The notes under the pieces were generated by a model that made no database searches, was not told the origin of the DNA, and saw only the letters and a list, made by a program, of their open reading frames with translations. A stretch of DNA of 64,000 nucleotides from Patescibacteria group bacterium. GTDB taxonomy: Bacteria; Patescibacteriota; UBA1384; XYA2-FULL-43-10; 1-14-0-10-43-13. Positions 1 to 14,617 of the stretch are shown here, in pieces (the stretch's first letter is position 1; each line of letters opens with the position of its first letter). The stretch spans positions 265,357-329,356 of the forward strand of contig JBAZBD010000001.1 of assembly GCA_041671645.1 (NCBI GenBank). The letters run 5' to 3'. Both the position numbers and the translations under genes were made by a program.

Positions 1-720
1 GGATGTGCGCTTGGAAGCCAGATATGAAGAGGAATAATACCAGCCTTCGTGCCAAAACCAATCAGAGCAAAGATAAAGGCTAGCGTTTGGGTATGCGGAG
101 AAACCAGCCCGATGTTGTTCTTAATTACTTCGAAATCGAAGGAGCCGGTGGAACGATAGAGCAATAGGAAAGCAAGAATGATGAAGGCTGTTCCGACATG
201 AGTCATGATGAAGTACAAGAAGCCGGCCTGGATGTTTTTGATCTCGTTCTTCTCGTAGATCACGAGGAAGTAGGAAGCGAGCGACATGATTTCCCAGACG
301 ATCAGGAAGAAGAGGGCATTGTGCGCGGTCACAACCAGAAGCATGCCGGCGATAAAGGCGTTATAAAAGAAGCCGAGACTTCCGATATTGTACTTGCGAT
401 AATAATGTTTGACGTAGCCATAGCCATAAATTGAGGCGAAAAGAGCTATCAGCGAGATAACAAGGACGAAAAATCCAGAGAGAAGGTCTGCGTGTACAGA
501 GAACGAAAGGGCTGGTAGTGTCGATGGCAAGCTGAAGGAGAAACTGCCACCCTTGAAGATAGTAAGTATCGAAGAGAAAATCCCGAAAATGGAGCCGAAA
601 ATTGCGAAGGCGCTGCTTGTGAAATTTGCGAGCTGGTCCTTTCGGCTGGCTAGCAACGAGAAAATCGCTCCGCATGCGAAGAGGGAAAGTGCAATAATAA
701 AGGAAGACTCGGCGAGGTTC
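1..720 (-). CDS. Partial (N-terminal part; runs off window start) NuoL/NuoM/MnhA/HyfB-family proton-pumping membrane subunit
   Basis: Reverse-strand translation from the ATG at 720 gives MNLAESSFIIALSLFACGAIF... with multiple TM helices and the family motif ...TKAGIIPLHIWLP near the window edge. The start lies 3 nt downstream of the stop of the NuoB-like gene, so the two are probably co-transcribed. The ORF track does not list it because it is truncated by the window. Confidence 0.7.
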
Positions 721-723
721 ATA

Positions 724-1269
724 TTAATTGTCTTTGGCTATTTTAGTTTTGGTCTCGATTTTTTCTAAAATCTCAAGAAGAGCTAGCAGAATTGCTTTTG
801 GTGTTGGTGGATCGCCAGGAATCGAATAATTGACTGGTATTACTTTGTTGACGCCATCCAACACAGCGTAAGAACCTTTGAATATTCCGCCATCGATGGC
901 GTCATCGCCAACGGCTACGACAATCTTGGGGTCGGGAGTCGCTTCGTAAGTCTTGATTAGCGCCTTTTCCATATTTCTTGAGACTGGGCCAGTCACCATC
1001 AGCATATCGGCGTGTCTGGGGGAAGCGACAAAGTGAATGCCAAATCTTTCTGAATCATAAAAACAGTTGGAGAGGGCGGTGAGCTCGTGTTCACAAGCAT
1101 TGGAGGAACCGGCGTCAACTTCGCGAATGGCGAGAGAACCTCTGAACAATTTCTTGACTTTGGCTTCAATCTTTTTGCCAATCAACAAAACTTCGCCGTC
1201 CAAAAGTAAATCTCTGGGCTCGATAATTGTTTTCTGAGTCTTAAGTATTTTAGTAAAGAGGTTGGGCAT
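724..1269 (-). CDS. NuoB / NiFe-hydrogenase small-subunit homolog with degenerate Fe-S ligands (Ehr-like)
   Basis: Strong similarity to the NuoB C-terminal half (SPRHADMLMVTGPVS...IVVAVG..A.DGG...VIPVNYSIPG.PP). Cluster N2 ligand positions read NAC (for CC), GDDAIDGG (for GSCANGGG) and IPGDPP (for GCPP), so only 1 of 4 Cys is retained. Confidence 0.7.
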   Translation of the reverse strand: MPNLFTKILKTQKTIIEPRDLLLDGEVLLIGKKIEAKVKKLFRGSLAIREVDAGSSNACEHELTALSNCFYDSERFGIHFVASPRHADMLMVTGPVSRNMEKALIKTYEATPDPKIVVAVGDDAIDGGIFKGSYAVLDGVNKVIPVNYSIPGDPPTPKAILLALLEILEKIETKTKIAKDN

Positions 1270-1463
1270 TTTCGCTAGATTTCACTCGTGATTTATATGA
1301 ACAATATACTATTAGTGAGGCGAAAAATCAAATCCTGTCGGACGGTTGACTAGTTGCCAATTTAAGGGTAGGCTATTACCTAGTTTTTTCGCTGCAATAT
1401 TGGTTTTTCTCCCCAAGAGGCTAAGTCAGTAGCAGGGCACAAACATTTCTTTGGAGGTCCCCA

Positions 1464-2180
1464 ATGCCGAGGAAATTTATTGGAATAGAGGCAATCCTTG
1501 GTGATTGCTCAGACGTTCGTGTCGAGCCTTATTATGACATGATCGCTGACTATCTTGATGGAGCCCGCAAGCCGAGCCCGGGTTGTAAACTACCCGCTAG
1601 TTCTGACTTTGTGCGGCTCTACACCGATCGCTATCGTAACAACGATGGCATCATCCCTTTTTTGGCCATACCCCATGACAGCCATTGCGCGGCATGGAAT
1701 GGCAACGGTGGTGATGAAGCCGGTTTTGAATATGCCGACTTTTTGATTGATTACCTACTCCGCCATGGTATCCCGGCCGCTTCGCTACGGGCGATCGACG
1801 GCCATCCGCCGATCGTTTCGCATGATGGCTTGACTTGTCATGGGCATAGCGCCCTCCGCGACCGCATCAGGGAGATGTGCGCAGATCCCTATTTAGCGGA
1901 TAGATGGGTATTCCACCATCCGGCCCGGGCTTATTCGGTCAATGTCGGTCATCATTTCTTCCGTCGGCCGTACCAACAGATTCTTCGATTCACTAGCTTC
2001 TATTTTGAAGAGGGTGCGGAGGCTGCTAATACGGTAGGCAGAATTCTGACCCTTTTTGCGCCGGGGGAAGTTCTGCCAGTTTATTTCTCAAAAGAGGTAT
2101 CGTGGCGTCGTCGTCGCGAGATCTCTGATCTTCTGACGGCACACAATCTTCCTCTGGACATCAAGGTGATGTCAGCCTAA
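1464..2180 (+). CDS. Hypothetical protein (His/Cys-rich, GC-rich gene)
   Basis: 238-aa ORF with no recognisable motif. RBS-like GGAGG lies upstream. Confidence 0.45.
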   Translation: MPRKFIGIEAILGDCSDVRVEPYYDMIADYLDGARKPSPGCKLPASSDFVRLYTDRYRNNDGIIPFLAIPHDSHCAAWNGNGGDEAGFEYADFLIDYLLRHGIPAASLRAIDGHPPIVSHDGLTCHGHSALRDRIREMCADPYLADRWVFHHPARAYSVNVGHHFFRRPYQQILRFTSFYFEEGAEAANTVGRILTLFAPGEVLPVYFSKEVSWRRRREISDLLTAHNLPLDIKVMSA

Positions 2181-2287
2181 GCAAACTTGAGGCCGCAAAC
2201 ACTGCGGTCTCTTTTATTTGACCCAGAATTGTACTATAGTGTCGCTTGAAGCAAATGCTTCAAATACAGACGAGGGAGGGATGAACC

Positions 2288-2812
2288 ATGTCGTCTCACG
2301 GAATCTCAAAACCAGATAATGAGAAGTATCTGGACGATTTGCGCTATTTCGTAGAAATAGTGACAAAAGGTAGTATCCCGGGGCAAGACCCGATCACTCG
2401 AGAAATCGATCGGATAGTGCCACTTGGGCCAAGGACGTTGTCACCGGAGGTGATGCATCTCCTGATGGATGCAGGAGTTATCATAGACACGGGACAGAAG
2501 GGTGCCAAATCTGGCGAAATTCGCCCCTACGGCTTACTTGCTGAGAAGAGAAGCCATCGCAACGGTCAACTCTTGTTGGAGCGGGCAAGTTCGCTTGTTC
2601 CAGACATCAATTTTGCGACCCTTTGGCGAGTGTCTTCAACGGTGCTCCGCAATTTGGAGTATTTCCTGACTCGCGAGGGGTCACCGTTGCAAAGGCTGGC
2701 CTGTCGACCTGACCCTGGTCGTCATCCGCGACTTTATTACATGAACGAATTCAACGAATGGTCACTCAACTATGATTTTGTGAAAGATTATATAGGTGAC
2801 CAACAAACCTAA
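2288..2812 (+). CDS. Hypothetical protein
   Basis: 174-aa ORF preceded by GGGAGGGATGAACCATG. No recognisable domain. Confidence 0.45.
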   Translation: MSSHGISKPDNEKYLDDLRYFVEIVTKGSIPGQDPITREIDRIVPLGPRTLSPEVMHLLMDAGVIIDTGQKGAKSGEIRPYGLLAEKRSHRNGQLLLERASSLVPDINFATLWRVSSTVLRNLEYFLTREGSPLQRLACRPDPGRHPRLYYMNEFNEWSLNYDFVKDYIGDQQT

Positions 2813-2931
2813 CCACAACGCCCCCTTGGGGCGTTTTTTAATACGCACGAATTTTGCAAAGAAAAGCAGAAAGTAGTTAAATTAGAAATATACTAAAGAA
2901 TCTCGCTAACTAATTTAGAAGAGAGGCCCAA

Positions 2932-3411
2932 ATGCCAGGAATTGGAATTGAAGGCGAAGTTGAGATGATAGAAGAGACCGCAGTTAATACGGACACTGCT
3001 GCCCCGGCTGAAGCGCCGGAAAAAATCGATTTGCCTATTGTTCGTTTTTGGGTCGGCGAAGAGGTAACTGGTGATGAGCTCAAGAAGAACTGGGAATTTG
3101 AATGCAAGCGCCCCGACTTTTCGTATGATGGCAAAACTTGTGAGAAATGGGTCGTTGGCGGTGACGGAGGACAGATTTGGCTGGCTCGAGATAAGGAACA
3201 AAACAAGTTGATCGGAGTCTTGAGACTGGTGAAAGGTGAGGCAGCAGCCTCAGTAGAGGAACTGAAAAAGTGGCATTTCACGGAAGGGCAGGAGTATAAC
3301 CATGGCGGTGAATATTATACGAATTACGAGTTGCATAATGCCGAGGGGCGTCTGCTTGTAAACAAAAATAGCGGCGTGATTAAGTCTTACACAAAAAATC
3401 CCGATTTCTAA
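2932..3411 (+). CDS. Hypothetical protein
   Basis: 159-aa ORF with an acidic N-terminus. No recognisable domain. Confidence 0.4.
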   Translation: MPGIGIEGEVEMIEETAVNTDTAAPAEAPEKIDLPIVRFWVGEEVTGDELKKNWEFECKRPDFSYDGKTCEKWVVGGDGGQIWLARDKEQNKLIGVLRLVKGEAAASVEELKKWHFTEGQEYNHGGEYYTNYELHNAEGRLLVNKNSGVIKSYTKNPDF

Positions 3412-3431
3412 TTTGTTTTGTTTGGGGGAAT

Positions 3432-4973
3432 ATGGACAAGGTTGCGAAAATCTATAGTGCGGCCACGGTGGGACTCGACTCGTATTTAGTTGAGGTCGAG
3501 GTTGATATTGGGGCTGGATTACCGTCTTTTACCATTGTTGGACTGGGTGACAAGGCGATAGATGAGAGCAAGGAGCGAATTCGGGCGGCGGTCAAGAATT
3601 CTGGTATGCACTTTCCGCAACATCGCTTGACGATCAATTTGGCGCCGGCCGATGTGAAGAAGGAGGGGCCAAATTTTGATTTGCCGATGGCAGTCGGAAT
3701 ATTACTGGCCGGAGAGCAATTTGACAACGTCAAGGACTTCGAGGAGTCGCTCTTTATCGGTGAATTATCGCTCGATGGTAAACTTCGCCATGTCAATGGG
3801 GTTTTGCCGATCGTAATGTTTGCCAAGGAGAAGGGATACAAGCAAGTATTCTTACCGGAAATCAACGCCGCTGAAGCTAGTTTGGTCAAAAATATTGCGA
3901 TCAGACCAATTTCTACGTTAATTCAATTAGTTAAGCATCTGCGAGGCGAACAAATAGTTCAAAGTTATAAAGCTCAAAAAGTCGATAAAGTCGAAAAAGA
4001 GTCGCAATCGGATTTTTGCTATGTGGCTGGGCAGGAACAGGTCAAGCGTGCGCTCGAGATTGCGGCGGCGGGCAATCACAATATCTTACTCTCTGGCCCG
4101 CCAGGGTCGGGCAAGACTCTGCTGGCGCGCACGATGCCAACCATCTTGCCCGAGATGGATGAAGACGAAATGCTCGAAGTGACCAAGATCTACTCTGTGG
4201 CGGGGCACTTGGGCAACGGCGACCCCTTTGTTTCTGACCGACCGTTCCGCTCTCCACATCACACCACTTCAAGTGTGGCGATGGTCGGAGGCGGGACTTG
4301 GCCTCGTCCGGGAGAGATAAGCCTTTCCCATCGAGGTGTCCTCTTTTTGGACGAATTTCCTGAGTTCCCACGCTCGGTTTTGGAAGCCCTTCGCCAGCCA
4401 CTTGAGGACGGCGTGGTCACAGTTTCGCGAGCGACCGGAAGCCTGACCTTCCCAGCTGAATTCTTGCTGGTGGCGGCGCAAAATCCTTGCCCATGCGGCT
4501 TCCTAAGCGACCCGGAGAAGCATTGCACTTGCACGCCGACGCAGATCATCAGATATCAAAAGAAGGTCTCAGGACCGATCCTAGACCGAATCGATATCCA
4601 TATGGAAGTACCGAGATTGAAATACGACAAATTGGCAGGGAGTCCGCCAGCTGGCGGAGTGGCGGAGGAGTCAGCCAAGGTCAGAGCTAGGGTTCAATCT
4701 GCACGGGACAGGCAAACAGAGCGATTCAAAAATACCAAGATCAAGTCGAACTCCGAGATGAGTTCCAAGGAAATCAAGCAGTATTGCAAACTGGAAGAAT
4801 CAGCCGAGAAGCTGATCGCTCAGGCGGTGGACTCAATGAGGCTATCGGCTCGCGTATATCATCGATTGCTCAAATTATCTCGCACAATTGCCGATCTCGA
4901 GGGCGCAGAGAATATTAAATCAGAACATATCGCTGAAGCATTGCAATACAGACCAAAAGAAAAAACGTACTAG
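3432..4973 (+). CDS. comM: YifB/ComM-family Mg-chelatase-like AAA+ ATPase
   Basis: N-terminal Lon-protease-like domain (YSAATVGLDSYLVEVEVDIGAGLPSFTIVGL), Walker A LSGPPGSGKTLLAR and C-terminal Mg-chelatase domain. Length 513 aa is typical of the family. Confidence 0.85.
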   Translation: MDKVAKIYSAATVGLDSYLVEVEVDIGAGLPSFTIVGLGDKAIDESKERIRAAVKNSGMHFPQHRLTINLAPADVKKEGPNFDLPMAVGILLAGEQFDNVKDFEESLFIGELSLDGKLRHVNGVLPIVMFAKEKGYKQVFLPEINAAEASLVKNIAIRPISTLIQLVKHLRGEQIVQSYKAQKVDKVEKESQSDFCYVAGQEQVKRALEIAAAGNHNILLSGPPGSGKTLLARTMPTILPEMDEDEMLEVTKIYSVAGHLGNGDPFVSDRPFRSPHHTTSSVAMVGGGTWPRPGEISLSHRGVLFLDEFPEFPRSVLEALRQPLEDGVVTVSRATGSLTFPAEFLLVAAQNPCPCGFLSDPEKHCTCTPTQIIRYQKKVSGPILDRIDIHMEVPRLKYDKLAGSPPAGGVAEESAKVRARVQSARDRQTERFKNTKIKSNSEMSSKEIKQYCKLEESAEKLIAQAVDSMRLSARVYHRLLKLSRTIADLEGAENIKSEHIAEALQYRPKEKTY

Positions 4974-4998
4974 GTCCTGAAGCGATTGAATAGGCAAT

Positions 4999-5032
4999 TA
5001 AAAAACGCCCCAATATCGATTGGGACGTTTTG
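4999..5032. terminator. Bidirectional rho-independent terminator between convergent genes
   Basis: AAAAACGCCCCAATATCGATTGGGACGTTTT: an 11-bp stem with one mismatch, loop ATCG, an A-run on the left and a T-run on the right. Confidence 0.6.
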
Positions 5033-5039
5033 GTGAGTG

Positions 5040-5327
5040 TCACTCTGCGGAGGCAGAGTTACGGATCATTTGTATTGCGCACGGGGCGCAAATTACAGGG
5101 TCACAGACGCCTTGGTTTTTGACCTCTTCAAAGTCGATTGGCATGCGACAAGTCCTGCTTGTCTGCCGATTTGACTCGTTGTCTTCGACCTCGACGAGGG
5201 CCCAGGTAAAAACCATTCCTTCCACAAGGTTTACAGTGGCGGAGAGAAGTATGTTCTCCTCGTGGTTTTCGATTGAGCGTTCGAGCCAAACGGCCCAAAT
5301 TTGCATGACTGGCTTTCCAGTTTTCAT
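5040..5327 (-). CDS. Hypothetical protein (95 aa)
   Basis: ORF on the same strand as, and downstream of, the kinase and membrane-protein genes. It ends right at the terminator. The overlapping + strand ORF looks less protein-like. Confidence 0.35.
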   Translation of the reverse strand: MKTGKPVMQIWAVWLERSIENHEENILLSATVNLVEGMVFTWALVEVEDNESNRQTSRTCRMPIDFEEVKNQGVCDPVICAPCAIQMIRNSASAE

Positions 5328-5386
5328 TAAAAAATTCCTCCCATAGCGGAATGTGTACTTGTGCTTACTATATCACAAAAGAGTAT

Positions 5387-5719
5387 TTATTGCAACTGAA
5401 AATTGCCGATTTTGTAGATCCAATCGCCGATATTGGTCAGAACATCGGTCTTCTGACCGAGAATATATATGCCGACGAAAATTATAGTGAGGGAGGCGAT
5501 TACGATCAAAAGCTTGTTCACATCTTTGCGGATATGGGCGTATTTGGCATTTAGTTCCGTCTCGCGGTCAACTTTGATTGGAGCTTCTGGCGCAGTTTTG
5601 ACGGTTTCGACTTGAGTATTGCTCGGGTTAGGTATTGAAATCGTGGTTGTCTCTCTTGCAACTTCATTTTGAATTCTTGGTTTTTGAGATTGTCTGAATT
5701 TATTTTTCTTTTTACCCAT
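5387..5719 (-). CDS. Hypothetical membrane-anchored protein (110 aa, basic N-terminus, C-terminal TM helix)
   Basis: MGKKKNKFRQSQKPR... with the hydrophobic segment LLIVIASLTIIFVGIYIL. Confidence 0.45.
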   Translation of the reverse strand: MGKKKNKFRQSQKPRIQNEVARETTTISIPNPSNTQVETVKTAPEAPIKVDRETELNAKYAHIRKDVNKLLIVIASLTIIFVGIYILGQKTDVLTNIGDWIYKIGNFQLQ

Positions 5720-5833
5720 ATATTCCTTTTGTTATCTTGAGTTAAAGGTACTATAAAAAGGACGAAAAGATCAATGGTTGAATTGAAATAAAACGACCAC
5801 CCAAGTTATCGATGGGTGGTCTGTGCTTGTGGG

Positions 5834-7162
5834 CTATGATACCAGCTCTGGGAGCGCGTTCAAAGCCTCTTTGACACTGTCAAATTCTTTGCAGTAGTAG
5901 AGGCCGTTGGCGGCCAGTCCGGCGTGGGTGGAGCTGCTGGCGTGACGGGGAACGACGACATCGAGACCCGAAAATTCAAGCGCTTTGACGAAGGCGGCGT
6001 TTTCGGCCCAGCCACCGGTAATTGCGACTTTGCAAATCAGCGGGATTTGCAAAGTTTCTGCTACACGATCTGCTTCGTGTACCATTGCAACGGCGACTCC
6101 GCGGAGATAGGCGGCAATGCCCTTACTTGGATCTTTGAAATTGGTGCAGACCCAGGCCGGCAGATTCGGAGCCAGAATAGTTTCGAGTGGCAGCGGCTCG
6201 ACCAGTCTGACCACTTCTGCGGCCGACTCGGACGCTTCGCAGTAACTCAGGTCGAAGTGACCGATCAGCTCTTTGTACATGGGGCCGAACATCCCGGTGT
6301 TGGTGACGGCGGCGCGGGTGGGGCCGAGGCCTTCAAAGTTGATGTTGGCCTTGAATGTGGTGCTTGTTGGAACGACGTTGTCAGGAATTCGTACGGTTGT
6401 ACCGAGCCAACTGCCGGTCCAGAAGACCCAATTACACTCAGTCAGCCCAACCAGGCGAGAGAGGACCGAGTCGTGAGAAGTTGCGAGAACTCTCGAACTT
6501 TTGTACCCAGACATTACGGCTCCGTCTTCGAGAATCGGACCTGCTCCAATCATTTCTCCTGGTATTGCACCGAAATTAGCTCCAGCATAAATCGAGGCAG
6601 CGGTCGAAGCGTGCAGTCCCATGCTTTGGCGCATGGTCTCGTCGTGCCCTGGTATTCCGCCGGACAATTTCCAGTTGATTAGTCCGGAAAACGGTACGAC
6701 GCCTAAGATGTCGCTTACGGAGAGTAATTCTGGGCAAAGGCGCTCTGTGGCGGCCAATATGCCAAGCGGTTGATAGAAGGCCGCAGCGGCTCCACCGGAG
6801 AGGAGATACATCTCTTCCCTGGTACGACCGACTTTGGCCAGCGCGTTTTCCAGGTCGGCTTCGGTGACCGATCGGTAATGCGGCAGGGGATACGTTGTCC
6901 CGCCCATACGGAGGCAGAATAGTAAGTCTGCACCCCACATGCCGGAGACGACGATGTCGCCCGGCTCTACAATATTCTTGGTGATCTGGTCGAGAGTGTC
7001 GGCCAGCCACTGGATGGGCCACTCCCAGAGTGGGCCATCAATTATCCAGGGGATCTTCTCTTCAAGCAAGATCCGGGCCCCGTCTTTGTCGTAGCTGACC
7101 ACCGATAACCCAGTAGTAGCACCGAGCACGATGGAAATAACGCGAGAATTGAATTGTGCCAT
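5834..7162 (-). CDS. FGGY-family carbohydrate kinase (rhamnulokinase-like)
   Basis: Actin-fold kinase signatures: N-terminal GMWGADLLF (compare IDTWGVDF), LATSHDSV (compare VASHDTASA) and C-terminal ITGGWAENAAFVKAL (compare IVGGGCQN). The gene looks GC-rich relative to its neighbours. Confidence 0.55.
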   Translation of the reverse strand: MAQFNSRVISIVLGATTGLSVVSYDKDGARILLEEKIPWIIDGPLWEWPIQWLADTLDQITKNIVEPGDIVVSGMWGADLLFCLRMGGTTYPLPHYRSVTEADLENALAKVGRTREEMYLLSGGAAAAFYQPLGILAATERLCPELLSVSDILGVVPFSGLINWKLSGGIPGHDETMRQSMGLHASTAASIYAGANFGAIPGEMIGAGPILEDGAVMSGYKSSRVLATSHDSVLSRLVGLTECNWVFWTGSWLGTTVRIPDNVVPTSTTFKANINFEGLGPTRAAVTNTGMFGPMYKELIGHFDLSYCEASESAAEVVRLVEPLPLETILAPNLPAWVCTNFKDPSKGIAAYLRGVAVAMVHEADRVAETLQIPLICKVAITGGWAENAAFVKALEFSGLDVVVPRHASSSTHAGLAANGLYYCKEFDSVKEALNALPELVS

Positions 7163-7268
7163 GTCATAAACCTCCTTCAGATTCTAATCCTTGGCTTATG
7201 AATGTTAAAACATATTTCGATAAATAAGTCAAAGAAAAAAGCTCCAGCATGAGCTGAAGCATTTTTCT

Positions 7269-7343
7269 TGGAGCGGGTAACGGGAGTCGAACCCGTATCT
7301 CATCCTTGGCAAGGACGTATAATAGCCGCTATACGATACCCGC
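7269..7343 (-). tRNA. tRNA-Gly (GCC), CCA encoded
   Basis: Cloverleaf folded by hand. Acceptor GCGGGTA/TACCCGC, anticodon loop TTGCCAA, T-loop TTCGACT. Confidence 0.8.
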
Positions 7344-7356
7344 AAACGTTTGATTT

Positions 7357-7430
7357 TGGAGGTCTGGCCGGGAATCGAACCCGGCTACGCGGTTTTGCAG
7401 ACCGCTGCCTAACCTCTCGGCCACCAGACC
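7357..7430 (-). tRNA. tRNA-Cys (GCA), CCA encoded
   Basis: Acceptor GGTCTGG/CCAGACC, anticodon loop CTGCAAA, T-loop TTCGATT. Confidence 0.75.
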
Positions 7431-7476
7431 TAATAACTATTATGCAAACGAAGTGGCCAGCCATCCGTAAGAAGAA

Positions 7477-7551
<75 letters not shown>

Positions 7552-7612
7552 GTAAAACAAGAAAATATTAACACTTTTAAGCCGCTAAATCAATATCGCT
7601 AGGGCTCTTCTC

Positions 7613-7641
7613 TTGAAAAATTAGCTGTTCTCAAGTATTAT
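7613..7641 (+). promoter_or_regulatory. Putative sigma70-type promoter for secG
   Basis: TTGAAA - 17 nt spacer - TATTAT, about 30 nt upstream of the secG ATG. Confidence 0.45.
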
Positions 7642-7670
7642 CTAATCTAGGTCGAGAGGCCGATTCACTT

Positions 7671-7892
7671 ATGTCAAACACATTCAAAATTATTCAAATT
7701 ATTCTGGCCATACTTTTGGTCATTTTGATCTTGCTTCAGCAGAGAGGCTCCGGCCTTGGCGCCGCTTTTGGCGGAGGAGACGGTAATGTCTACCGATCAC
7801 GTCGTGGCATAGAGAAGATGATTTTCTACGCTACTATTGTTGTCGCAGTTCTATTTTGTATCGTCGCCCTCTTCTCGGTTTTCTTTTCCTAA
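7671..7892 (+). CDS. secG: Preprotein translocase subunit SecG
   Basis: 73 aa with two TM helices and the LLQQ.GSGLGAAFGGG motif typical of SecG. Confidence 0.7.
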   Translation: MSNTFKIIQIILAILLVILILLQQRGSGLGAAFGGGDGNVYRSRRGIEKMIFYATIVVAVLFCIVALFSVFFS

Positions 7893-7904: not shown

Positions 7905-9431
7905 ATGAAATTACCTTTAGATTTTGATTCTAGAGACAAATTTAAGTTTTTTCACGCGAAGAGAAATCCCTTTTCATTTTTGAGTAAGTTTTTCTTTAAT
8001 TTGAAGAAGAGTTATCTTCTAATGTCCAAGATAGAAAGAGTCGGCGCACTCTTTTTTTCGTTGTTGGCCTTTGTCCTGATTGGATTTAAGCTCTACGACC
8101 TGTATCTTCTCATGACTGTCTCAATCCCGACCTCGGGTGGCGTTTACGAAGAAGCGGTATATGGGGATCTCAAATATATCAATCCGATCACGGCTCAATC
8201 AGAGACCGATAGGTCTGTCTCCAAATTGCTCTTCTCTGGACTTGTCAAAGTCGCGAGCCAGGACAAGATCTTGCCTGATCTGGCGGAAAAATGGGAAACA
8301 TCGACCGATGGCCAGACCTACACCTTCTATCTCAAGAAAAATCTGACTTTTAGCGATGGCGCGGCTTTAACCGCCAACGACGTTGCTTACACCGTCGACT
8401 ATATCAAGGATCCGGCTTCGAAGAGCCCGCTTCTAAACAGCTGGTCAAACGTAACTGTCCAAGTTGTCGACGACTACACCGTCACTTTCTCTCTTCCAAA
8501 AGTCTATGGACCATTCATCTACAACTGTGCTTTTGGCATCCTGCCTTCTCACCTATCGAGTGACGAATTTTCGAAGAAGTTGAGCGGGAGCGGCCCATAC
8601 AAATTCCTGAAATCCAGCAAGACAAAAGATAGTACCAAGATTTCATCAATCGAACTGGTCAAAAACACGAATTATGCCGGCTCGACCCCCTATATTGATA
8701 AACTGAAACTCGATTTCTACGCTAGCAAAGATGAGGCCAAGAGCGCTTATGAGAACGGCAAGAAGGTCAACGGGCTTTTTGGCACGACTTCTGGAGTAGG
8801 CCAGGACAAGAGCTTTCAGTCTGGCCGCCGCCTTGGCTTGATTGCCAATGTTACGAGCGAAAAATTGAAGGATGTTGCGGTCAGACAAAAACTTTTTGAG
8901 GCTACTGCCAAATTTGATACCGCAGTTGACTTAAACCTGGCTACTCTGGACGCTTCGTATCAGCGCGCCAAAGCGGATGAGCTGGTCGCCAAGTACAAAG
9001 AGTTGAACGTGAATTTGAACGTTCAATATTTGACGCCTTTGCAATTTCCAGACGCGATCTCGGCTCGCAAATATGATCTCTTGCTCTATGGATTTGACTT
9101 TGGCTATGACCGAGACCCTTATACTTTCTGGCATTCGAGCCAGGTCGCTAGTGGCATGAACTTCGCTGGCTGGTCAGACAAGGCTTCGGATATCTTGCTT
9201 GAAGATGCTCGCATGATTATTGATCCAGTTCAACGTAATGCCAAATATGACGAATTCTTTGCCAATGTCTTCACCAAGCAGTTCCTGGGCCAATTCTATG
9301 ATCCGATAAGCTACAATTTCGCTGTCAAAGATTCGATCAGGAATGTTGGCAGTATCGCAGGCAATCAGGTATATTCCAGGTACAGCGATATTTCCAGCTG
9401 GCATATCGAGGAGAAGAGAGTACGCAAATAG
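7905..9431 (+). CDS. ABC transporter substrate-binding protein, family 5 (peptide/nickel, OppA/DppA-like)
   Basis: N-terminal TM anchor, then LKYINPITAQSETDRSVSKLLFSGLVKV...EKWETSTDGQTYTFYLKKNLTFSDGAALTANDVAYTV, which is typical of SBP_bac_5. An alternative start is at 8022 (MSKIERV...). Confidence 0.65.
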   Translation: MKLPLDFDSRDKFKFFHAKRNPFSFLSKFFFNLKKSYLLMSKIERVGALFFSLLAFVLIGFKLYDLYLLMTVSIPTSGGVYEEAVYGDLKYINPITAQSETDRSVSKLLFSGLVKVASQDKILPDLAEKWETSTDGQTYTFYLKKNLTFSDGAALTANDVAYTVDYIKDPASKSPLLNSWSNVTVQVVDDYTVTFSLPKVYGPFIYNCAFGILPSHLSSDEFSKKLSGSGPYKFLKSSKTKDSTKISSIELVKNTNYAGSTPYIDKLKLDFYASKDEAKSAYENGKKVNGLFGTTSGVGQDKSFQSGRRLGLIANVTSEKLKDVAVRQKLFEATAKFDTAVDLNLATLDASYQRAKADELVAKYKELNVNLNVQYLTPLQFPDAISARKYDLLLYGFDFGYDRDPYTFWHSSQVASGMNFAGWSDKASDILLEDARMIIDPVQRNAKYDEFFANVFTKQFLGQFYDPISYNFAVKDSIRNVGSIAGNQVYSRYSDISSWHIEEKRVRK

Positions 9432-9466
9432 TTATAAAGTTAAAAGTTTAAAGTTCGTAAAGTCTA
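9431..9466. repeat. Short tandem array of the WAAAGTY repeat family
   Basis: GTTATAAAGTTAAAAGTTTAAAGTTCGTAAAGTCTAT. Confidence 0.5.
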
Positions 9467-9502
9467 TGATTTTCTTTACAACTTTATACTTTTGACTCAT
9501 TT

Positions 9503-9588
9503 GGGCGAATGGTGAAATGGCAGACACGCAGCGTTCAGAGCGCTGTGAGAGCAATCTCGTGGAGGTTCAAGTCCTCTTTCGCCCACCA
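9503..9588 (+). tRNA. tRNA-Leu (CAG), class II with long variable arm, CCA encoded
   Basis: Acceptor GGGCGAA/TTCGCCC, anticodon stem-loop CAGCG-TTCAGAG-CGCTG, T-loop TTCAAGT. Confidence 0.75.
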
Positions 9589-9687
9589 AAATAAGATTCA
9601 AAAGAGGCGGCTTTACGGTCGCTTCTTTTTTTGTTACGGTCTGGTGGGCAAATGCCCGTACACATATATTTTAAGGGGGGTTATCTC

Positions 9688-11019
9688 ATGCGTATATTCG
9701 GAATAGTCGCGGAGCCAGGTATAGATATCTGGCTTGATATCATCGTGGCTCTAAGCCTGCAAGGTTATGCAGGACCGCGAGGATGCGGCTTCGGTCTTCG
9801 GACCAAGGCTGGTCTCCAGCTTTGGCACTCGGCTTTGGTAGCCGCCCAAGCCTTTGCGAGGATGTCCGCTAGCGAAATTTCGGGATATGTAGGCAATATT
9901 GGTATCGGTTGCAATTCAACGACCGGTGTCATGATGCCAATTCGTTTCTCAAATCTCAGCGGGGATGACATTTTAGTGGTTATCGACAGCAATGTTCAAA
10001 CTGCTAAGGATGTTGTTGAGCAAATGGAACGGGGGACAACATTACGTGATTCCGTCGAGATTGCGATGAGGAATGTCGTGGGACATTTTGCTTTGGTCGC
10101 AATGTCGAACGATGATGAGATTGTCTGCGGTCGAAACAGCGGGCTTATGCCCTTATCGATAAGCAAGATAGTCGGCGACCATGGCGTCGAGGCTATGTAC
10201 GTCTCGTCTTCAAGCAGAGTTCTCAACCGAGGCGTCTCGTTCGTCCGTAGCGTTATGCCTGGGGAGATAGCTGTTCTGAGCTGTAATGGCTTTATTGCCG
10301 AAGGTATCAACATAATTGAAAACCTCGGTTGCCCACTGGAGGGATTGTTTCATCTACCGCCAGGCGATCAATTCGGCGGAATTGGGGTTCAGGATATCCG
10401 TTATGCTACCGGGAGAGCTCTCGGTCATAATGTTTTGAGAGATCGCCCCGAAATTATTGATAAGAACTGTGTCGTCATAGCAATCCCTGATGGTGGCAAC
10501 AAAGTAGCCGAAGGATTAGCTTATCAGCTTGGAGTAAAGTTTTTGTCGAACTTGGCTGTTAAAAACCGCTATCCAGACAATAAAGGGATCAAAAACCTGA
10601 CCATTCGTGGAGTTGCAATTAGCAGCAAGTACACTCTAGCAGGTGCAATCCCGATTCGCTTGCCAGGAGTTGAGATGTTCAATGAGATGCTGAATGGAAA
10701 GAACGTGTTCCTTGTCGACGACTCTTTCTATTCTGGTTGGACATTCGAGCATTTTCTCTATCTTTGCAAGGAAGCTGGCGCTGATAAGGTGCATGGATTT
10801 GCACCAACAATTGCGGGTAGTCCGTGCTCTTACGGCAAGGATGCTCATCGTGAAGGATCAAAGGCGCGGGATCACACTGGTCAGATAGATCAGATAGCCA
10901 GGGATATCGGCCTTGATAGTTTTACAACACTTTCTCGTAGGGAGCTTATTGGGGCGATCAACACGCCGCAGAAGATACTCTGCACAGAATGCCTGTGCTT
11001 CTCGCCCCAGCTAGATTAG
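9688..11019 (+). CDS. PurF-like amidophosphoribosyltransferase homolog lacking the N-terminal catalytic Cys (glutaminase-dead paralog)
   Basis: The protein aligns by eye along its whole length with PurF: GNIGIG.., GHFALVAMSNDDEIVCGRNSGLMPL, MYVSSSS, VMPGEIAV, the PRPP loop KNVFLVDDSFYSGWT and C-terminal Cys residues. However the N-terminus reads MRIFGIV rather than MCGIVG. The start is assigned to the ATG after the AAGGGGGG RBS. Confidence 0.6.
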   Translation: MRIFGIVAEPGIDIWLDIIVALSLQGYAGPRGCGFGLRTKAGLQLWHSALVAAQAFARMSASEISGYVGNIGIGCNSTTGVMMPIRFSNLSGDDILVVIDSNVQTAKDVVEQMERGTTLRDSVEIAMRNVVGHFALVAMSNDDEIVCGRNSGLMPLSISKIVGDHGVEAMYVSSSSRVLNRGVSFVRSVMPGEIAVLSCNGFIAEGINIIENLGCPLEGLFHLPPGDQFGGIGVQDIRYATGRALGHNVLRDRPEIIDKNCVVIAIPDGGNKVAEGLAYQLGVKFLSNLAVKNRYPDNKGIKNLTIRGVAISSKYTLAGAIPIRLPGVEMFNEMLNGKNVFLVDDSFYSGWTFEHFLYLCKEAGADKVHGFAPTIAGSPCSYGKDAHREGSKARDHTGQIDQIARDIGLDSFTTLSRRELIGAINTPQKILCTECLCFSPQLD

Positions 11020-11047
11020 CTGGGGCAATTTTAATCCAAATTTTTCT

Positions 11048-11076
11048 TTGACAAAAATAAAGTAATTTGCTATGGT
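11048..11076 (+). promoter_or_regulatory. Putative sigma70-type promoter
   Basis: TTGACA - 17 nt spacer - TATGGT. Confidence 0.4.
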
Positions 11077-11128
11077 GAGTAAGTTAAAACATTATTAAAC
11101 CAGCTTGAATATTTAGATAAGTTATATT

Positions 11129-11149
11129 CGGGCTGCGGCCCGTTTTTTT
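11129..11149 (+). terminator. Rho-independent terminator/attenuator hairpin immediately upstream of tRNA-Val
   Basis: CGGGC-TGCG-GCCCG followed by TTTTTTT. Confidence 0.5.
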
Positions 11150-11151
11150 AT

Positions 11152-11228
11152 GCGCGCTTAGCTCAGTTGGTTAGAGCATCTCGTTTACACCGAGAGGGTC
11201 GGGGGTTCGAATCCCTCAGCGCGCACCA
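11152..11228 (+). tRNA. tRNA-Val (UAC), CCA encoded
   Basis: GCGCGCTTAGCTCAGTTGGTTAGAGC..., anticodon loop TTTACAC, GGTTCGAATCC T-arm. Confidence 0.8.
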
Positions 11229-11315
11229 GGGCGAATGGTGAAATTGGTATACACGCTACCTTGAGGTGGTAGTGGGAGCAATCCCGTGGAGGTTCAAGTC
11301 CTCTTTCGCCCACCA
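11229..11315 (+). tRNA. tRNA-Leu (GAG), class II, CCA encoded
   Basis: Acceptor and T-arm identical to the tRNA-Leu at 9503. Anticodon stem-loop CTACC-TTGAGGT-GGTAG. Confidence 0.7.
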
Positions 11316-11341
11316 ATCTTATTAGTAAGATTTCGATTATT

Positions 11342-11722
11342 ATGTTTGATAAGGCAACGTTATTTAGCCCAATACCTAGCCCGAATGCGCCATATTTCGT
11401 AGTGTTGGCAATTTCGGCAGTGATCGTGATACTGATGGCGACAGCAATATTGCTTTTCATCAAGAACGAATGGAGACGATTTGCCGTCAAATACGTTCCG
11501 CCATTTATGACCTTCGGTGTTCTTGGCCTGATTCACCTGGCGGCTCGATATGAAGGTCTGCCATGGCTTGCATCAAACATTTTCTTTGTTTCACTTCTGG
11601 CCATCTTCTCAATTTGGATCCTCGTTATAGCCGTTTGGAGCTTGAGAGCGATACCAAAATTTGCGAAGGAGCAGGAAGCGAACGAGAGATATGAGAAATA
11701 TTTACCAAAGAAAAAGAAATAA
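11342..11722 (+). CDS. Hypothetical membrane protein (about 3 TM helices, Lys-rich C-terminus)
   Basis: Hydrophobic segments. No recognisable domain. Confidence 0.45.
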   Translation: MFDKATLFSPIPSPNAPYFVVLAISAVIVILMATAILLFIKNEWRRFAVKYVPPFMTFGVLGLIHLAARYEGLPWLASNIFFVSLLAIFSIWILVIAVWSLRAIPKFAKEQEANERYEKYLPKKKK

Positions 11723-11766
11723 TATATATAGAAAATCCGGCGAACCCGGAATAGGAGATATTTAGA

Positions 11767-13050
11767 ATGACAGATGAAGAGAAGAAGGAAGAAGTAGTTG
11801 AGACAGTAGCAGAAGTCGCGCCAGAGGTTGTGAAACCAAAGCATTCTGGCAAGGACACGATGGAGAGCCTTATCGAGGAACTTGGCGATAAGCTTTTGCC
11901 ATTTGCTGAAGGCGATACCGTAGAAGCGGTTATTTTGGCCGTTTCTGGAAACAGAATCTGGGTCGACGTAGCTGGCCAGTCGCTTGGTTTTGTTCCTGAG
12001 AAGGAAATCACATCCAAAACTGGTATGAAGACAGGTGACAAGATTTTGGCCACCGTACTTTCGATGGAAGACGAGGATGGCAATGTTGTCCTTTCACTCA
12101 AACGTGCTGACAGAGAGAAATATTGGGCTGATATGGAAGCCGGATTCAAGAGCGGCGAGCCAGTTACAGTCAAGATCACTGATGCCAACAAGGGCGGACT
12201 TATGACTGATATTGGCGGAATCATGGGCTTCTTGCCCGTTTCACAGCTTGCTCCAGCACATTACCCTAGAGTTACTGGCGGAGACAAAGAAGAAATTTTG
12301 AGTCGTTTACGCAAATATGTCGGTACCGATTTCGTAGTCAAGGTCATCACTTGCGAGAGAGAGACTAGCAAATTGATCTTCTCCGAGAAGGCTGTTAAAG
12401 CTCAGGAAGTCAAAAACAAGATTGATAAATTCGCAGTTGGCGACAAAGTTAAGGGCAAAATTACCGGTATCGTTGATTTTGGTCTGTTTGTCTCTATTGA
12501 CCCTGAAATTGAAGCGCTTGTACATATTTCCGAAGTATCTTGGAACAGAGTTTCAGACCTCAACAGATTATTCAAAGTCGGAGACGAAGTTGAGACTATG
12601 GTTATCTCAGTTGAGGACGGTCGCGTTTCACTTTCTCTCAAGAGATTGCTTCCTGACCCTTGGGTCAAGGCCGCTTCCAAGTACAAAGTTGGCGATGTCG
12701 TCGAGGGTGAAGTGACCAAGATTACCCCATTTGGCGCTTTCGTCTCACTAGACGAAGAGATTGACGGACTTGTCCATGTCTCTGAGCTTTCTGTCGAAAG
12801 AATTGTAGACCCAAGCAAAGTTGTCGAATTGGGCAAGAAATATTCTTTCAAAATTATCTCTATCGAAGCAGAAAATCACAGACTAGGGCTTTCTATGAAA
12901 GTTGATTCCAAGGCTCCAAAAGCTGAAAAAGAAGAGAAAAAGGCCAAAGTAGAAAAAGTAGAAGAAGTTGAGGCCGAAGTCGAAGAGAAACCAAAGAAGG
13001 TCAAGAGAGTGAAGAAAACCAAGATCGACGACCTCGAAGAAATGGCCTAA
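11767..13050 (+). CDS. rpsA: 30S ribosomal protein S1
   Basis: Four to five tandem S1 domains (GDKVKGKITGIVDFGLFVSID, GDVVEGEVTKITPFGAFVSLD, etc.), an acidic N-terminus and a Lys/Glu-rich C-terminus. RBS AGGAG. Confidence 0.85.
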   Translation: MTDEEKKEEVVETVAEVAPEVVKPKHSGKDTMESLIEELGDKLLPFAEGDTVEAVILAVSGNRIWVDVAGQSLGFVPEKEITSKTGMKTGDKILATVLSMEDEDGNVVLSLKRADREKYWADMEAGFKSGEPVTVKITDANKGGLMTDIGGIMGFLPVSQLAPAHYPRVTGGDKEEILSRLRKYVGTDFVVKVITCERETSKLIFSEKAVKAQEVKNKIDKFAVGDKVKGKITGIVDFGLFVSIDPEIEALVHISEVSWNRVSDLNRLFKVGDEVETMVISVEDGRVSLSLKRLLPDPWVKAASKYKVGDVVEGEVTKITPFGAFVSLDEEIDGLVHVSELSVERIVDPSKVVELGKKYSFKIISIEAENHRLGLSMKVDSKAPKAEKEEKKAKVEKVEEVEAEVEEKPKKVKRVKKTKIDDLEEMA

Positions 13051-13078
13051 TTTAACGATTTAAGTACCTGGAGGAATA

Positions 13079-13567
13079 ATGCAGATAAAATACAAGGGTG
13101 ACGCGAAGTTCGAGATCAAGTCCAAAGACTTGGAAGTTATGCTCGACGGCAATATTTCGATCAACGGATTTAAGTTTCCTGGTCCAGGCGAATATGAGAA
13201 GGGCGGAGTAATCCTAAATGGTATTTCTGATGGAAGCAACACGATCTATACCGCCAAAATCGAGGATATGAATGTATGCTATCTTGGACGGATCAATCAT
13301 GAGCTTTCTGAAGAAGAGGCCAAGGGGATTGGCGATACTGACATTTTGTTCCTTCCGCTTGGCGAGGATGGCTCGGCTAATCTCAAAATCGCGCTCAAGA
13401 TTCTTTCAAATATTGACCCTCGCGTAGTGATCCCGATGCTCTATTCAGACCTCTCTGAATTCAAAAAAAGCGAAGGCTATACAGACGGCGAACTAGATGT
13501 GCTCAAAATCAAAAAGAACGAACTACCAGAAGAAGAGAGAAAGCTTGTCATCTTGCAAGCCAATTAG
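13079..13567 (+). CDS. MBL-fold (UPF0173-like) protein without an evident HxHxDH metal motif
   Basis: MQIKYKGDAKFEIKS... and DILFLPLGEDGSANLKIALKILSNIDPRVVIPMLY resemble short metal-dependent hydrolases of the beta-lactamase fold. The His ligands appear substituted. Confidence 0.35.
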   Translation: MQIKYKGDAKFEIKSKDLEVMLDGNISINGFKFPGPGEYEKGGVILNGISDGSNTIYTAKIEDMNVCYLGRINHELSEEEAKGIGDTDILFLPLGEDGSANLKIALKILSNIDPRVVIPMLYSDLSEFKKSEGYTDGELDVLKIKKNELPEEERKLVILQAN

Positions 13568-13573
13568 CAACAG

Positions 13574-13645
13574 AATTTCTAATTAATCTAATTGCTCTAA
13601 TTGACCTAAAATTTAGAAATTAGTAATTAGAAATTAGTAATTGGA
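13574..13645. repeat. AT-rich intergenic repeat array (TAGAAATTAGTAAT family)
   Basis: ...TTTAGAAATTAGTAATTAGAAATTAGTAATTGG.... The same family occurs in reverse orientation at 23552-23615. Confidence 0.5.
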
Positions 13646-13657
13646 GCGAAGCGACCC

Positions 13658-14617
13658 ATGGCCTCATCCACAAAACTCAAGCAAATTCTGGAGGACAAGG
13701 AGAGTTTCTTTTTGATATGCCATGTTGACCCCGACGGCGACGCCATAGGGTCAATCTTGGCTTTGGACGAATATCTGATCGGCCAGGGCAAGAAAACGAC
13801 CTTGCTTTGCCGGGACACTGTTCCCGATATGTTTACTTTCTTGCCGGGGGCAGTGAAAATTTCCATGGATTTTCCGGTTGATCCGCCAGGAGCGATTATT
13901 CTGCTGGACAACGGCGATTTTCGCAGGACTGGCTATCAGGAGGAGATTACAAGAGCGAAGAAATCGGGAGTTTCAATAATCAATATTGATCATCACCCGA
14001 AGAACGATTTGTGGAAAAAAGTGAGTCTAAACTATGCAGACGAGAGTCTATCCTCGACCTGCGAGGTATTATACGGAATTTTTGCAGACTTGAGCTCAAA
14101 TCTGACCTCAGCAATGGCGACCGCTCTTCTGACCGGTATATATTTTGATACCGGGGGATTCCGTCACTCCAATACGACAGACGAGGTCTTGTCGATCGCT
14201 TCTGATCTTCTGAAGAAGGGGGCACGACTTCAAAAGATCACCGAGAATATTGACAACTCACGCTCATTTTCACTTTTCAAACTCTGGGGTATTGCCCTTG
14301 AGCGACTACGATTGAATCGCAAGTATGGGATTTCGGTGTCCGTCATTACAGCGGAAGATATCGCGAAGGCAGGGGCGAGTGAAGAGGAGGTTTCTGGGCT
14401 TGTAAATTTGCTCAATTCGGCTCCAGAATCTGAAGTAGCAATGTTGCTTTGCGAAAGTTTTGATGCTAAAATCAAAGGCAGTTTACGGACGGAGAGCGAC
14501 AAAATCGATGTCTCGCGCCTTGCCAAACTTTTTGGTGGCGGAGGACACAAGAAGGCGGCAGGATTCACGATCGACGGTCGAATCAAGATCGTAGACAATC
14601 GTTGGACAATTATATAG
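13658..14617 (+). CDS. nrnA: DHH-family phosphoesterase NrnA (oligoribonuclease / pAp phosphatase)
   Basis: Motifs HVDPDGDAIGS, NIDHHP, GIYFDTGGFRHSNT and GGGHKKAAGF. Confidence 0.8.
   Translation: MASSTKLKQILEDKESFFLICHVDPDGDAIGSILALDEYLIGQGKKTTLLCRDTVPDMFTFLPGAVKISMDFPVDPPGAIILLDNGDFRRTGYQEEITRAKKSGVSIINIDHHPKNDLWKKVSLNYADESLSSTCEVLYGIFADLSSNLTSAMATALLTGIYFDTGGFRHSNTTDEVLSIASDLLKKGARLQKITENIDNSRSFSLFKLWGIALERLRLNRKYGISVSVITAEDIAKAGASEEEVSGLVNLLNSAPESEVAMLLCESFDAKIKGSLRTESDKIDVSRLAKLFGGGGHKKAAGFTIDGRIKIVDNRWTII

Follow-up and report, generated by a model that had tools for sequence, protein, structure and literature searches.

The 64,000-nt stretch of Patescibacteria group bacterium DNA analysed here (the window; contig JBAZBD010000001.1) carries at its first positions the start of an operon for an energy-converting hydrogenase related (Ehr) complex. 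Followed into a second assembly of the same organism, the locus is identified by protein alignment as a complete six-subunit Ehr complex of a Patescibacteria bacterium. This complex has lost every redox-cofactor site: the small-subunit [4Fe-4S] cluster, the NiFe site, the quinone-site His and Tyr, and the NuoI-like ferredoxin. With these sites lost, neither hydrogenase activity nor electron-driven pumping is possible for it. Its membrane arm comprises two antiporter-like subunits, a NuoH-like subunit and a HyfE-like subunit, and keeps every charged residue that serves ion transfer in complex I and in Mrp-type antiporter-like subunits. Both arms are under strong purifying selection. The preferred reading, given a probability of roughly 0.45, is that of a redox-independent, gradient-coupled ion translocator with Mrp-like cation/proton exchange.

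The small subunit EhrS (181 aa; 724..1269, minus strand) is a homolog of NuoB and of [NiFe]-hydrogenase small subunits, as indicated by its open reading frame (ORF) and by Pfam, NCBIfam and PDB alignments. It matches Oxidored_q6 (PF01058) in Pfam at E=1.5e-24 and the NuoB subfamily PRK06411 in NCBIfam at 118.4 bits, narrowly over the cutoff of 116. The top matches among solved structures are HycG of E. coli formate hydrogenlyase (7Z0S_G, 9e-31) and MbhJ of Pyrococcus MBH (6CFW_J, 1.2e-29), and the matches to complex I NDUFS7 (about 1e-24) and Nqo6 are weaker. The protein is labelled NuoB by NCBI and Ni,Fe-hydrogenase III small subunit by the Joint Genome Institute (JGI). The identity that the original prediction had assigned to the 181-aa protein from the letters alone is confirmed by the Pfam, NCBIfam, HycG, MbhJ and NDUFS7 matches.

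Three of the four [4Fe-4S] ligands are replaced in EhrS. In the alignments with HycG and MbhJ, S56 (codon at 1102..1104, minus strand) occupies the site of the first cluster cysteine of the hydrogenase CxxC. The third cluster cysteine is replaced by D123 (GAC, 901..903, minus strand) in the acidic loop VAVGDDAIDGG, and the fourth by D153 (GAT, 811..813, minus strand), which changes IPGCPP to IPGDPP. The sole retained ligand position is C59 (TGT, 1093..1095, minus strand), which is glutamate in the sister xEGx subtype. EhrS therefore keeps C59 alone of the proximal [4Fe-4S] ligands of group 4 [NiFe]-hydrogenases. The cluster N2 ligands of complex I NuoB are also missing in the NDUFS7 alignment, in which A58 stands at the first-ligand position of the complex I 'CC'. 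The strings NAC, GDDAIDGG and IPGDPP, from which the loss of all four Fe-S ligands had been predicted, were read correctly and three ligands are gone, but C59 remains. The 120 nearest EhrS homologs (68-100% identity; named Patescibacteria/Paceibacterota by NCBI) have T or S at position 56 in 117 cases, C59 in 117, D123 in 119 and D153 in all 120. Because the same residues recur in these homologs, the substitutions are not a frame or sequencing error, and the check for a translation error proposed with the original prediction does not restore the four cysteines.

The EhrS stop codon (TAA, 726..724) and the EhrA start codon (ATG, 722..720) are separated by 1 nt, and not by the 3 nt reported at first. 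EhrA is a HyfB/NuoL-type antiporter-like subunit of 679 aa in full, of which the first 240 codons (1..722, minus strand) precede the point where the gene leaves the window. These 240 residues match Pfam Proton_antipo_M at 1.8e-21, with hydrogenase-4 subunit B as the best NCBIfam match at 1.7e-65, in agreement with the NuoL/HyfB-like membrane subunit predicted to run off the window. The whole operon is present on L001, a 13.6-kb contig from the second assembly, which carries an identical EhrS protein. Its gene order is EhrS-EhrA-EhrB-EhrC-EhrD-EhrL, with 0-3 nt between successive genes. EhrS (181 aa) is the NuoB/hydrogenase small subunit, and EhrA (679 aa) is HyfB-like, with 689.7 bits against an NCBIfam HyfB equivalog cutoff of 667. 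EhrB (309 aa) is NuoH/HycD-like (HycD 7Z0S_D, 8.6e-54), EhrC (219 aa) is HyfE-like, and EhrD (481 aa) is HyfF-like, with MbsH (6U8Y_H, 1.4e-31) as its best PDB match and HycC at 1.9e-21. EhrL (518 aa) is a NuoC-NuoD fusion that matches HycE (7Z0S_E) at 7.3e-71. The core subunits of an Ehr complex, namely the large, small, NuoH-like, Mrp/NuoL-type antiporter-like and HyfE-like subunits, are found together in this one operon. The suggested extension past position 1 thus yields NuoH-like and fused NuoC-NuoD partners, and the supposed minimal ion-translocating module of two genes proves to be a complete six-subunit complex.

EhrL lacks all four NiFe cysteines and has S220, S223, S512 and G515 in their place in the HycE alignment. 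RVCGICGFAH of HycE corresponds to KISGDSAFSH, and DPCYSCTD corresponds to NLSYSGND. Both NiFe CxxC motifs, and with them the L1/L2 NiFe-binding cysteines of group 4 [NiFe]-hydrogenases, are absent, so that EhrL is the large-subunit homolog without CxxC motifs that the original prediction had proposed to look for. His38 and Tyr87 of T. thermophilus Nqo4, the quinone-site residues of complex I NuoD, align in 2FUG_4 to I172 and to a glycine of EhrL, respectively. The domain scan finds no Fer4 domain in the six L001 Ehr proteins, and the electron-input subunits NuoI, NuoE, NuoF and NuoG occur neither in L001 nor in the window. No ORF of at least 80 aa with a CxxCxxCxxxC motif or with at least two CxxCH motifs is present in the whole window. 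Ehr complexes are described as group 4 hydrogenase relatives lacking NiFe ligands and having an unknown function (PMC6349859, PMC3569383, PMC10284858, PMC7894505). The absence of NiFe cysteines from EhrL and of a ferredoxin makes this published definition fit the locus (PMC6349859, PMC3569383, PMC10284858). The predicted resemblance to Ehr is borne out by L001, with its six Ehr subunit types and no NuoI/HyfH-type ferredoxin, as is the view that a full complex I or hydrogenase was unlikely, the operon being neither a canonical Nuo nor a hydrogenase operon.

The ion-transfer positions of the membrane arm were mapped on E. coli NuoM by alignment. In EhrA, E144, K226, H233, K257, H351, K355 and E410 are invariant in 70 sequences, and the Glu of transmembrane helix (TM) 5 (E144) and the Lys and His of TM7 (K226, H233) fall within the part encoded in the window. 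In EhrD, E134, K222 and K339 are invariant in 64 sequences, H229 and H335 have one exception each, and position 394 is either E or K. The MrpA/MrpD-type pattern of TM5 Glu, TM7 Lys, TM8 Lys/His and TM12 Lys/Glu is thus present, with the exception of EhrD N253 at the TM8 Lys position (NuoM K265). Since this Asn occurs in Ehr loci both with and without the small-subunit cluster, it characterises Ehr as such and does not mark a defect in the Cys-less clade. Mean pairwise identity in the Cys-less clade is 0.63 for S, the best conserved of the six, 0.59 for B, 0.56 for L, 0.54 for A, 0.52 for D and 0.45 for C, compared with 0.68 for S and 0.53 for L in the cluster-bearing group, all loci having been retrieved through small-subunit similarity. 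The similar identities of S and L in both groups mean that loss of the cluster did not relax selection on the peripheral arm. The arm is therefore no vestige, nor is the operon a relic.

The two groups come from a survey of one genome per GTDB species and of JGI metagenomes, scanned with small-subunit patterns, which gave 160 further loci. The classification puts 85 loci, L001 among them, in the group whose small subunit is Cys-less and 75 in the group that has all four cysteines. Large subunits of both groups lack the NiFe cysteines and mostly read S-x-S-G, with variants at positions 1 and 4, the exception being a second, true hydrogenase cluster of L059. Because the large subunits are without NiFe ligands, the whole set is Ehr in the published sense. 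The assumption that a cofactor-less small subunit is typical of Ehr does not hold, as all 75 of the more distant Ehr-type loci sampled keep the four cysteines. Cluster-bearing hosts include Methanoperedens, Bacillota, Acidobacteriota, Nitrospirota, Omnitrophota and others. Cys-less hosts are Magasanik-, Levy-, Vogel-, Kaiser-, Adler-, Staskawicz-, Moran- and Saccharibacteria, Paceibacterota, and a few metagenome-assembled genomes (MAGs) labelled Dadabacteria, Thermoleophilia, Fibrobacteria and Bdellovibrionales. Cys-less operons are also seen on contigs assigned to lineages outside the candidate phyla radiation (CPR), in L004 (a 2.79-Mb contig), L005 (Dadabacteria) and L019, L020 and L022 (Thermoleophilia). 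Either the Cys-less variant is not strictly limited to Patescibacteria or transfer has taken place.

Gene order and ferredoxin content also differ between the groups. The order is S-A-B-C-D-L in 44 of 44 complete Cys-less loci and mostly A-B-C-D-L-S in cluster-bearing loci. The latter usually contain a 2x[4Fe-4S] ferredoxin, encoded by a 112-aa gene before S or fused to an S of 240-300 aa, and about ten of those scanned have no detectable ferredoxin. The fused form matches the NuoI-NuoB fusion described for the Ehr of Margulisbacteria and Firmicutes (PMC6349859 supplementary note 4). None of the Cys-less operons has an ORF with a CxxCxxCxxxCP motif within 4 kb. Four small-subunit cluster cysteines and a NuoI-like ferredoxin are typical but non-defining Ehr traits, and L001 has neither. 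The loss of the small-subunit cysteines and of the ferredoxin sets the Cys-less subclade apart.

A neighbour-joining tree of EhrA, EhrB and EhrL, which is a distance tree only, is rooted on the true hydrogenase L059b. It places 31 Cys-less loci as one clade nested among cluster-bearing Ehr, and two long-branch Moranbacteria Cys-less loci fall outside this main clade. The large and membrane subunits group with Ehr and not with true hydrogenases, in agreement with PMC7304191. The Cys-less loci are best described as a derived and mainly Patescibacteria clade within Ehr. A single origin of the Cys-less state is not established, as strict monophyly has a bootstrap of 19/100 and the two Moranbacteria loci lie elsewhere. 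The outgroup comes from the L059 Methanomassiliicoccus contig, which carries an Ehr operon (176-7769) followed by a true group-4 hydrogenase cluster (9140-13769) with all NiFe and Fe-S cysteines.

Several loci depart from the common arrangements. L043, L045, L046, L047, L065 and L067 have the small-subunit gene first, keep its four cysteines, and have no detected ferredoxin gene; the hosts are four MAGs labelled Chloroflexi/Anaerolineales, plus KSB1 and Acidobacteria. These loci may be intermediates between classical and cofactor-free Ehr, and are compatible with a stepwise loss. In the divergent Moranbacteria loci L052 (4224-5618) and L066 (3933-5528), a NuoH-like gene of 465-532 aa and the lack of a detected separate HyfE-like gene suggest an EhrB-EhrC fusion. 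L021 has a second EhrD after EhrL (17223-18680). Tandem EhrA copies occur in several cluster-bearing loci (extra antiporter-like genes in L045, L046, L054, L061 and L062), so that members of the family differ in how many pump modules they have.

The former cluster site of EhrS has become acidic. In a comparison of EhrS, EhrB and EhrL consensus sequences between the Cys-less and cluster-bearing groups, EhrS 153 is the sole position where each group has its own residue conserved to at least 90%, namely C in cluster-bearing and D in Cys-less loci. The loop vAvGaCa.sGG of cluster-bearing EhrS reads VAVGD(D/G)AI(D)GG in all Cys-less subtypes, all of which have gained D122. At least two Asp or Glu are found among the four ex-ligand positions in 83 of the 85 Cys-less small subunits, and the carboxylate swaps position between the two main subtypes (C59/D123 versus E59/G123). 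This pattern argues for a conserved acidic pocket in Cys-less EhrS over a specific metal centre. A strict C59/D123/D153 metal site as a family-wide feature is ruled out by the S-E-G-D sister subtype and by other combinations.

According to the preferred reading, the complex would move ions without electron transfer, by Mrp-like cation/proton exchange or by gradient conversion, in a fermentative cell that also has an H+ F1Fo ATPase. Its peripheral arm would have no redox task and would instead act in gating, in coupling or in the entry of ions. The acidic ex-cluster pocket (D122, D123, D126, D153, E60, E62) may bind a cation atop the NuoH-like channel, and the NuoH-like/HyfE-like channel could form a second ion path or gate together with this pocket.

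Genes for ATP synthase lie close to some of these operons. F1 alpha or beta genes occur within 10 kb in 7 Cys-less loci, versus 0 of 75 cluster-bearing loci. In L024 (580-7055), a whole atpBEFHAGDC operon ends 210 nt ahead of ehrS, and its c subunit, read by eye, has the E. coli-type 'LVDA' Asp. L001 itself has an AtpI-like gene (13333-13566) 118 nt after ehrL, at the contig end, with 24.5 bits to Pfam ATPase_gene1, below the cutoff of 26.6. The loci with an ATP synthase link are L001 (AtpI-like after ehrL), L024, L002, L009, L090, L107, L120 and L154, in two different arrangements. The linkage is real in 8 loci and statistically weak, and it provides context, not proof.

A number of points weigh against an Mrp-like translocator. 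The ATP synthase adjacency is about 2-4 times that expected by chance for a 1-Mb genome and is not phylogenetically independent. A secondary antiporter has no obvious need for a large, highly conserved peripheral arm, which Mrp lacks. Motifs of the former active site are common to both Ehr groups: PFDNPATHLELTMIHEAMILEYSG in EhrB, and GPVHAGIIEPGHFRF, SGDSxFxH and DFPLINKSFNLSYSGNDL in EhrL, together with the C-terminal SYSGND of EhrL. Their presence in cluster-bearing Ehr hints at a common chemistry at this site. The preferred reading fails to explain why they are kept in common, which is a real weakness. The ex-ligand residues differ between subclades (S-E-G-D; DADD, DVEN, SEAN), so that a strict metal or ion site is no more than putative. 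The AlphaFold2 model of EhrS from a 42-sequence alignment has a predicted local distance difference test score (pLDDT) of 45.7 and a predicted template modelling score (pTM) of 0.39, too poor for inspection of the pocket. Lastly, the role of Ehr has never been investigated (PMC7894505, PMC10284858).

The alternative that survives best assigns the complex to non-redox chemistry. It would be an energised docking platform, with a CsoSCA-like carbonic anhydrase as partner in a vectorial interconversion of CO2 and HCO3-. Either the proton set free by CO2 hydration would be drawn off by the ion gradient, or the reaction would run in reverse and supply that gradient. A CsoSCA-like protein of 340-400 aa adjoins the Cys-less operon in L025 (1-483, minus strand), L028 (2703-3773, minus strand), L032 (7378-8418, minus strand), L037 (11147-12355, minus strand) and L066 (180-1199, plus strand). 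The CsoSCA catalytic domain PF20686 is found over cutoff in L032, L037 and L066, three of the four full-length proteins (3.4e-10 to 1.8e-6), and the scan of the L028 protein gave just a weak DabA match. These proteins match PDB 2FGY at 5.4e-5, and the zinc-site motifs C-x-D-x-R and H-[FY]-S-x7-G-C are conserved.

The association is favoured by the rarity of the partner. The CsoSCA-like family is tiny (13 clusters in 5.8 billion proteins). Of four contexts looked up with the carbonic anhydrase gene as the starting point, three have it next to, and divergent from, a Cys-less ehrS: L083 (2785-3828), L084 (10001-11044) and L085 (8610-9668). The gene thus lies beside 8 related Cys-less Ehr operons in total, mostly divergent from ehrS, whereas none is found in the 75 cluster-bearing loci. 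The orientation of the neighbouring gene varies, and the adjacency is seen in the xEGx as well as the TCDD subtype. On the other side, the gene is present in just 5 of 85 Cys-less loci, and the fourth looked-up context, L086, places a family member beside the nitrate reductase genes narGHJI instead. The proposal rests on gene adjacency, and neither tblastn nor a profile hidden Markov model finds a homolog in the 64-kb window, where no carbonic-anhydrase-like partner is encoded with the antiporter-like subunit. For the organism studied here, CO2/HCO3- interconversion is considered unlikely. The broader proposal, that the Cys-less Ehr clade represents a redox-free complex-I-type machine coupling an ion gradient to non-redox chemistry at or near the peripheral arm, is likewise viewed with considerable doubt.

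The complex could still be a redox enzyme, with a non-canonical cluster or metal held by C59, D123 and D153, or with electrons from a partner encoded elsewhere. These three residues are nearly invariant in the 120 closest homologs, and the active-site-region motifs of EhrL and EhrB are identical to those of cluster-bearing Ehr. Aspartate ligates Fe-S clusters in some proteins. The sister subtype S-E-G-D, however, is without any cysteine, and DADD, DVEN and SEAN also occur. To our knowledge, a cluster with three non-Cys ligands has no precedent. There is also no ferredoxin subunit, there are no NiFe or quinone residues to accept electrons, and no Fe-S or heme-motif ORF is present in the window. 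A redox function is thus regarded as very unlikely.

The absence of all cofactor sites and the reduced genomes of Patescibacteria could also be taken as marks of a decaying hydrogenase or Ehr relic without present function. This is scarcely credible for six intact and tightly spaced ORFs, whose order is fixed in 44 of 44 complete loci across many lineages, with a mean pairwise identity of 45-63% and invariant ion-transfer residues. Genomes of about 1 Mb would not keep a 7-kb relic. A canonical complex I or [NiFe]-hydrogenase with its remaining subunits past the window edge, as the database names suggest (NuoB at NCBI, Ni,Fe-hydrogenase III small subunit at JGI), is refuted by L001 and retains practically no probability, since the whole operon is visible there, EhrL is without NiFe and quinone-site residues, NuoI, NuoE, NuoF and NuoG genes are missing, and an AtpI-like gene follows directly.

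The flanking ORFs of 47 Cys-less loci were clustered, and no family is present in more than 8 loci, the top clusters being ribosomal proteins and reflecting subclade synteny. A universal partner encoded beside the operon is rejected on this count, and no conserved redox partner was found beside the operons of these 47 loci. The six ehr genes are therefore a self-contained unit. In the SEGD subclade, two genes are found ahead of the operon and on its strand: one with a DedA/VTT domain, about 97 nt upstream, in 8 loci, and a Na_H_Exchanger gene in 6 loci. The DedA/VTT gene and a 700-aa Na+/H+ exchanger (PF00999) lie upstream of ehrS in L030, L035, L038, L041, L044 and L048, and also in L036, L039 and L118.

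In the window, the 194-nt divergent intergenic region contains a promoter-like TTGATT-17-TATATT (1303..1331, minus strand) about 34 nt upstream of the EhrS start; this site is a weak hit of a consensus scan whose count of sites is not above the shuffled expectation. Three plus-strand ORFs divergent from ehrS encode 238 aa (1464-2180), 174 aa (2288-2812) and 159 aa (2932-3411), none with a Pfam match at E<=0.01, and are followed by a ComM/Mg-chelatase-like gene at 3432-4973. About one third of the window could be annotated, by way of short contigs of the same sample. It contains ribosomal protein S1, DHH phosphoesterase, FtsX, proteases and histidine biosynthesis genes, and its functions are housekeeping ones.

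Ehr complexes and CPR Ehr large subunits without NiFe cysteines are already known, and no report was found of the total loss of cofactor sites. The literature searched contains no account of the added loss of the small-subunit cluster and ferredoxin, and no mention of the S-first order, the acidic pocket, or the carbonic anhydrase and ATP synthase neighbourhoods, although the founding comparative paper (Marreiros et al. 2013) may hold one. Literature searches on hyfB in Patescibacteria and on CsoSCA in CPR returned nothing.

Complex I, membrane hydrogenases and Mrp antiporters have a common coupling machine, the mechanism of which is debated. A widespread, strongly conserved relative with a complete peripheral arm and no redox cofactor sites is a natural experiment, which shows that the arm has a role beyond electron carriage. 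Such a cofactor-free complex is a simpler object for the study of communication between the peripheral arm and the ion channels. Patescibacteria are regarded as fermenters without electron transport chains. A conserved 7-kb ion-translocating complex, which in some cases lies beside the ATP synthase operon, is relevant to the control of membrane potential, pH and sodium in these cells. In some lineages, the repeated link to a rare carbonic anhydrase family is a concrete and testable lead to the function of Ehr complexes, of which none has yet been characterised. If the CO2 proposal were true, it would represent the third independent recruitment of antiporter-like modules for a vectorial carbonic anhydrase, after Cup and DAB, and a CO2-coupled Ehr would be central to the energy metabolism of Patescibacteria, which is otherwise puzzling.

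Classical Ehr, known as EhrABCDLS from Geobacter sulfurreducens and also from Margulisbacteria, Firmicutes, Nitrospira and Methanoperedens, has the same six subunit types (PMC7894505; PMC6349859). The family motif PFDNPATHLELTMIHEAMILEYSG of EhrB and the SYSGND C-terminus of EhrL are further similarities. Classical Ehr contains four small-subunit cysteines, mostly has a fused or adjacent NuoI-like 2x[4Fe-4S] ferredoxin, and follows the order A-B-C-D-L-S. In contrast, Cys-less Ehr has Ser, Thr, Asp, Glu or Gly in place of the cysteines, lacks the ferredoxin, and has the small-subunit gene moved to the front. The available text of Jaffe et al. 2020 (PMC7304191) describes CPR Ehr large subunits as monophyletic, without NiFe-binding cysteines and judged unable to interact with H2. 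The Cys-less clade is very probably the same as this CPR Ehr clade. That text deals with the large subunit only, and the small-subunit cluster, ferredoxin loss, gene order and neighbours are not mentioned in it.

E. coli Hyf and Hyc (7Z0S) provide the best NCBIfam or PDB matches for five of the six subunits, EhrD being the exception (MbsH). Unlike them, the complex described here lacks a NiFe site and a proximal cluster, and it has neither the ferredoxins HyfA/HyfH or HycB/HycF nor a formate dehydrogenase. MBS/Mbx (6U8Y) and MBH (6CFW) of Pyrococcus furiosus belong to the same fold family and have the same antiporter-like modules. MBS is similar in being a hydrogenase-derived respiratory complex, the large subunit of which is also without NiFe cysteines. 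In the paper on its structure, MBS is said to keep three [4Fe-4S] clusters and to reduce polysulfide, whereas no cluster-binding site remains here.

Antiporter-like subunits that energise a carbonic-anhydrase-like partner and not redox chemistry have precedents in DabAB and in the CupA/CupB of cyanobacterial NDH-1. The partner in the related loci is CsoSCA-like and not DabA or Cup, and the complex comprises six subunits, including a peripheral arm. The Mrp antiporter (7QRU, 7D3U) contains MrpA/MrpD-type subunits with the same conserved Glu/Lys/His chain and is redox-independent. It differs in lacking a NuoB/NuoD/NuoH-like module and a peripheral arm, and in having MrpB, C, E, F and G. These subunits are not found here, where a HyfE-like small membrane subunit and a NuoB/NuoCD arm are present instead. 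Judged by this comparison, the complex most likely works like an Mrp cation/proton antiporter.

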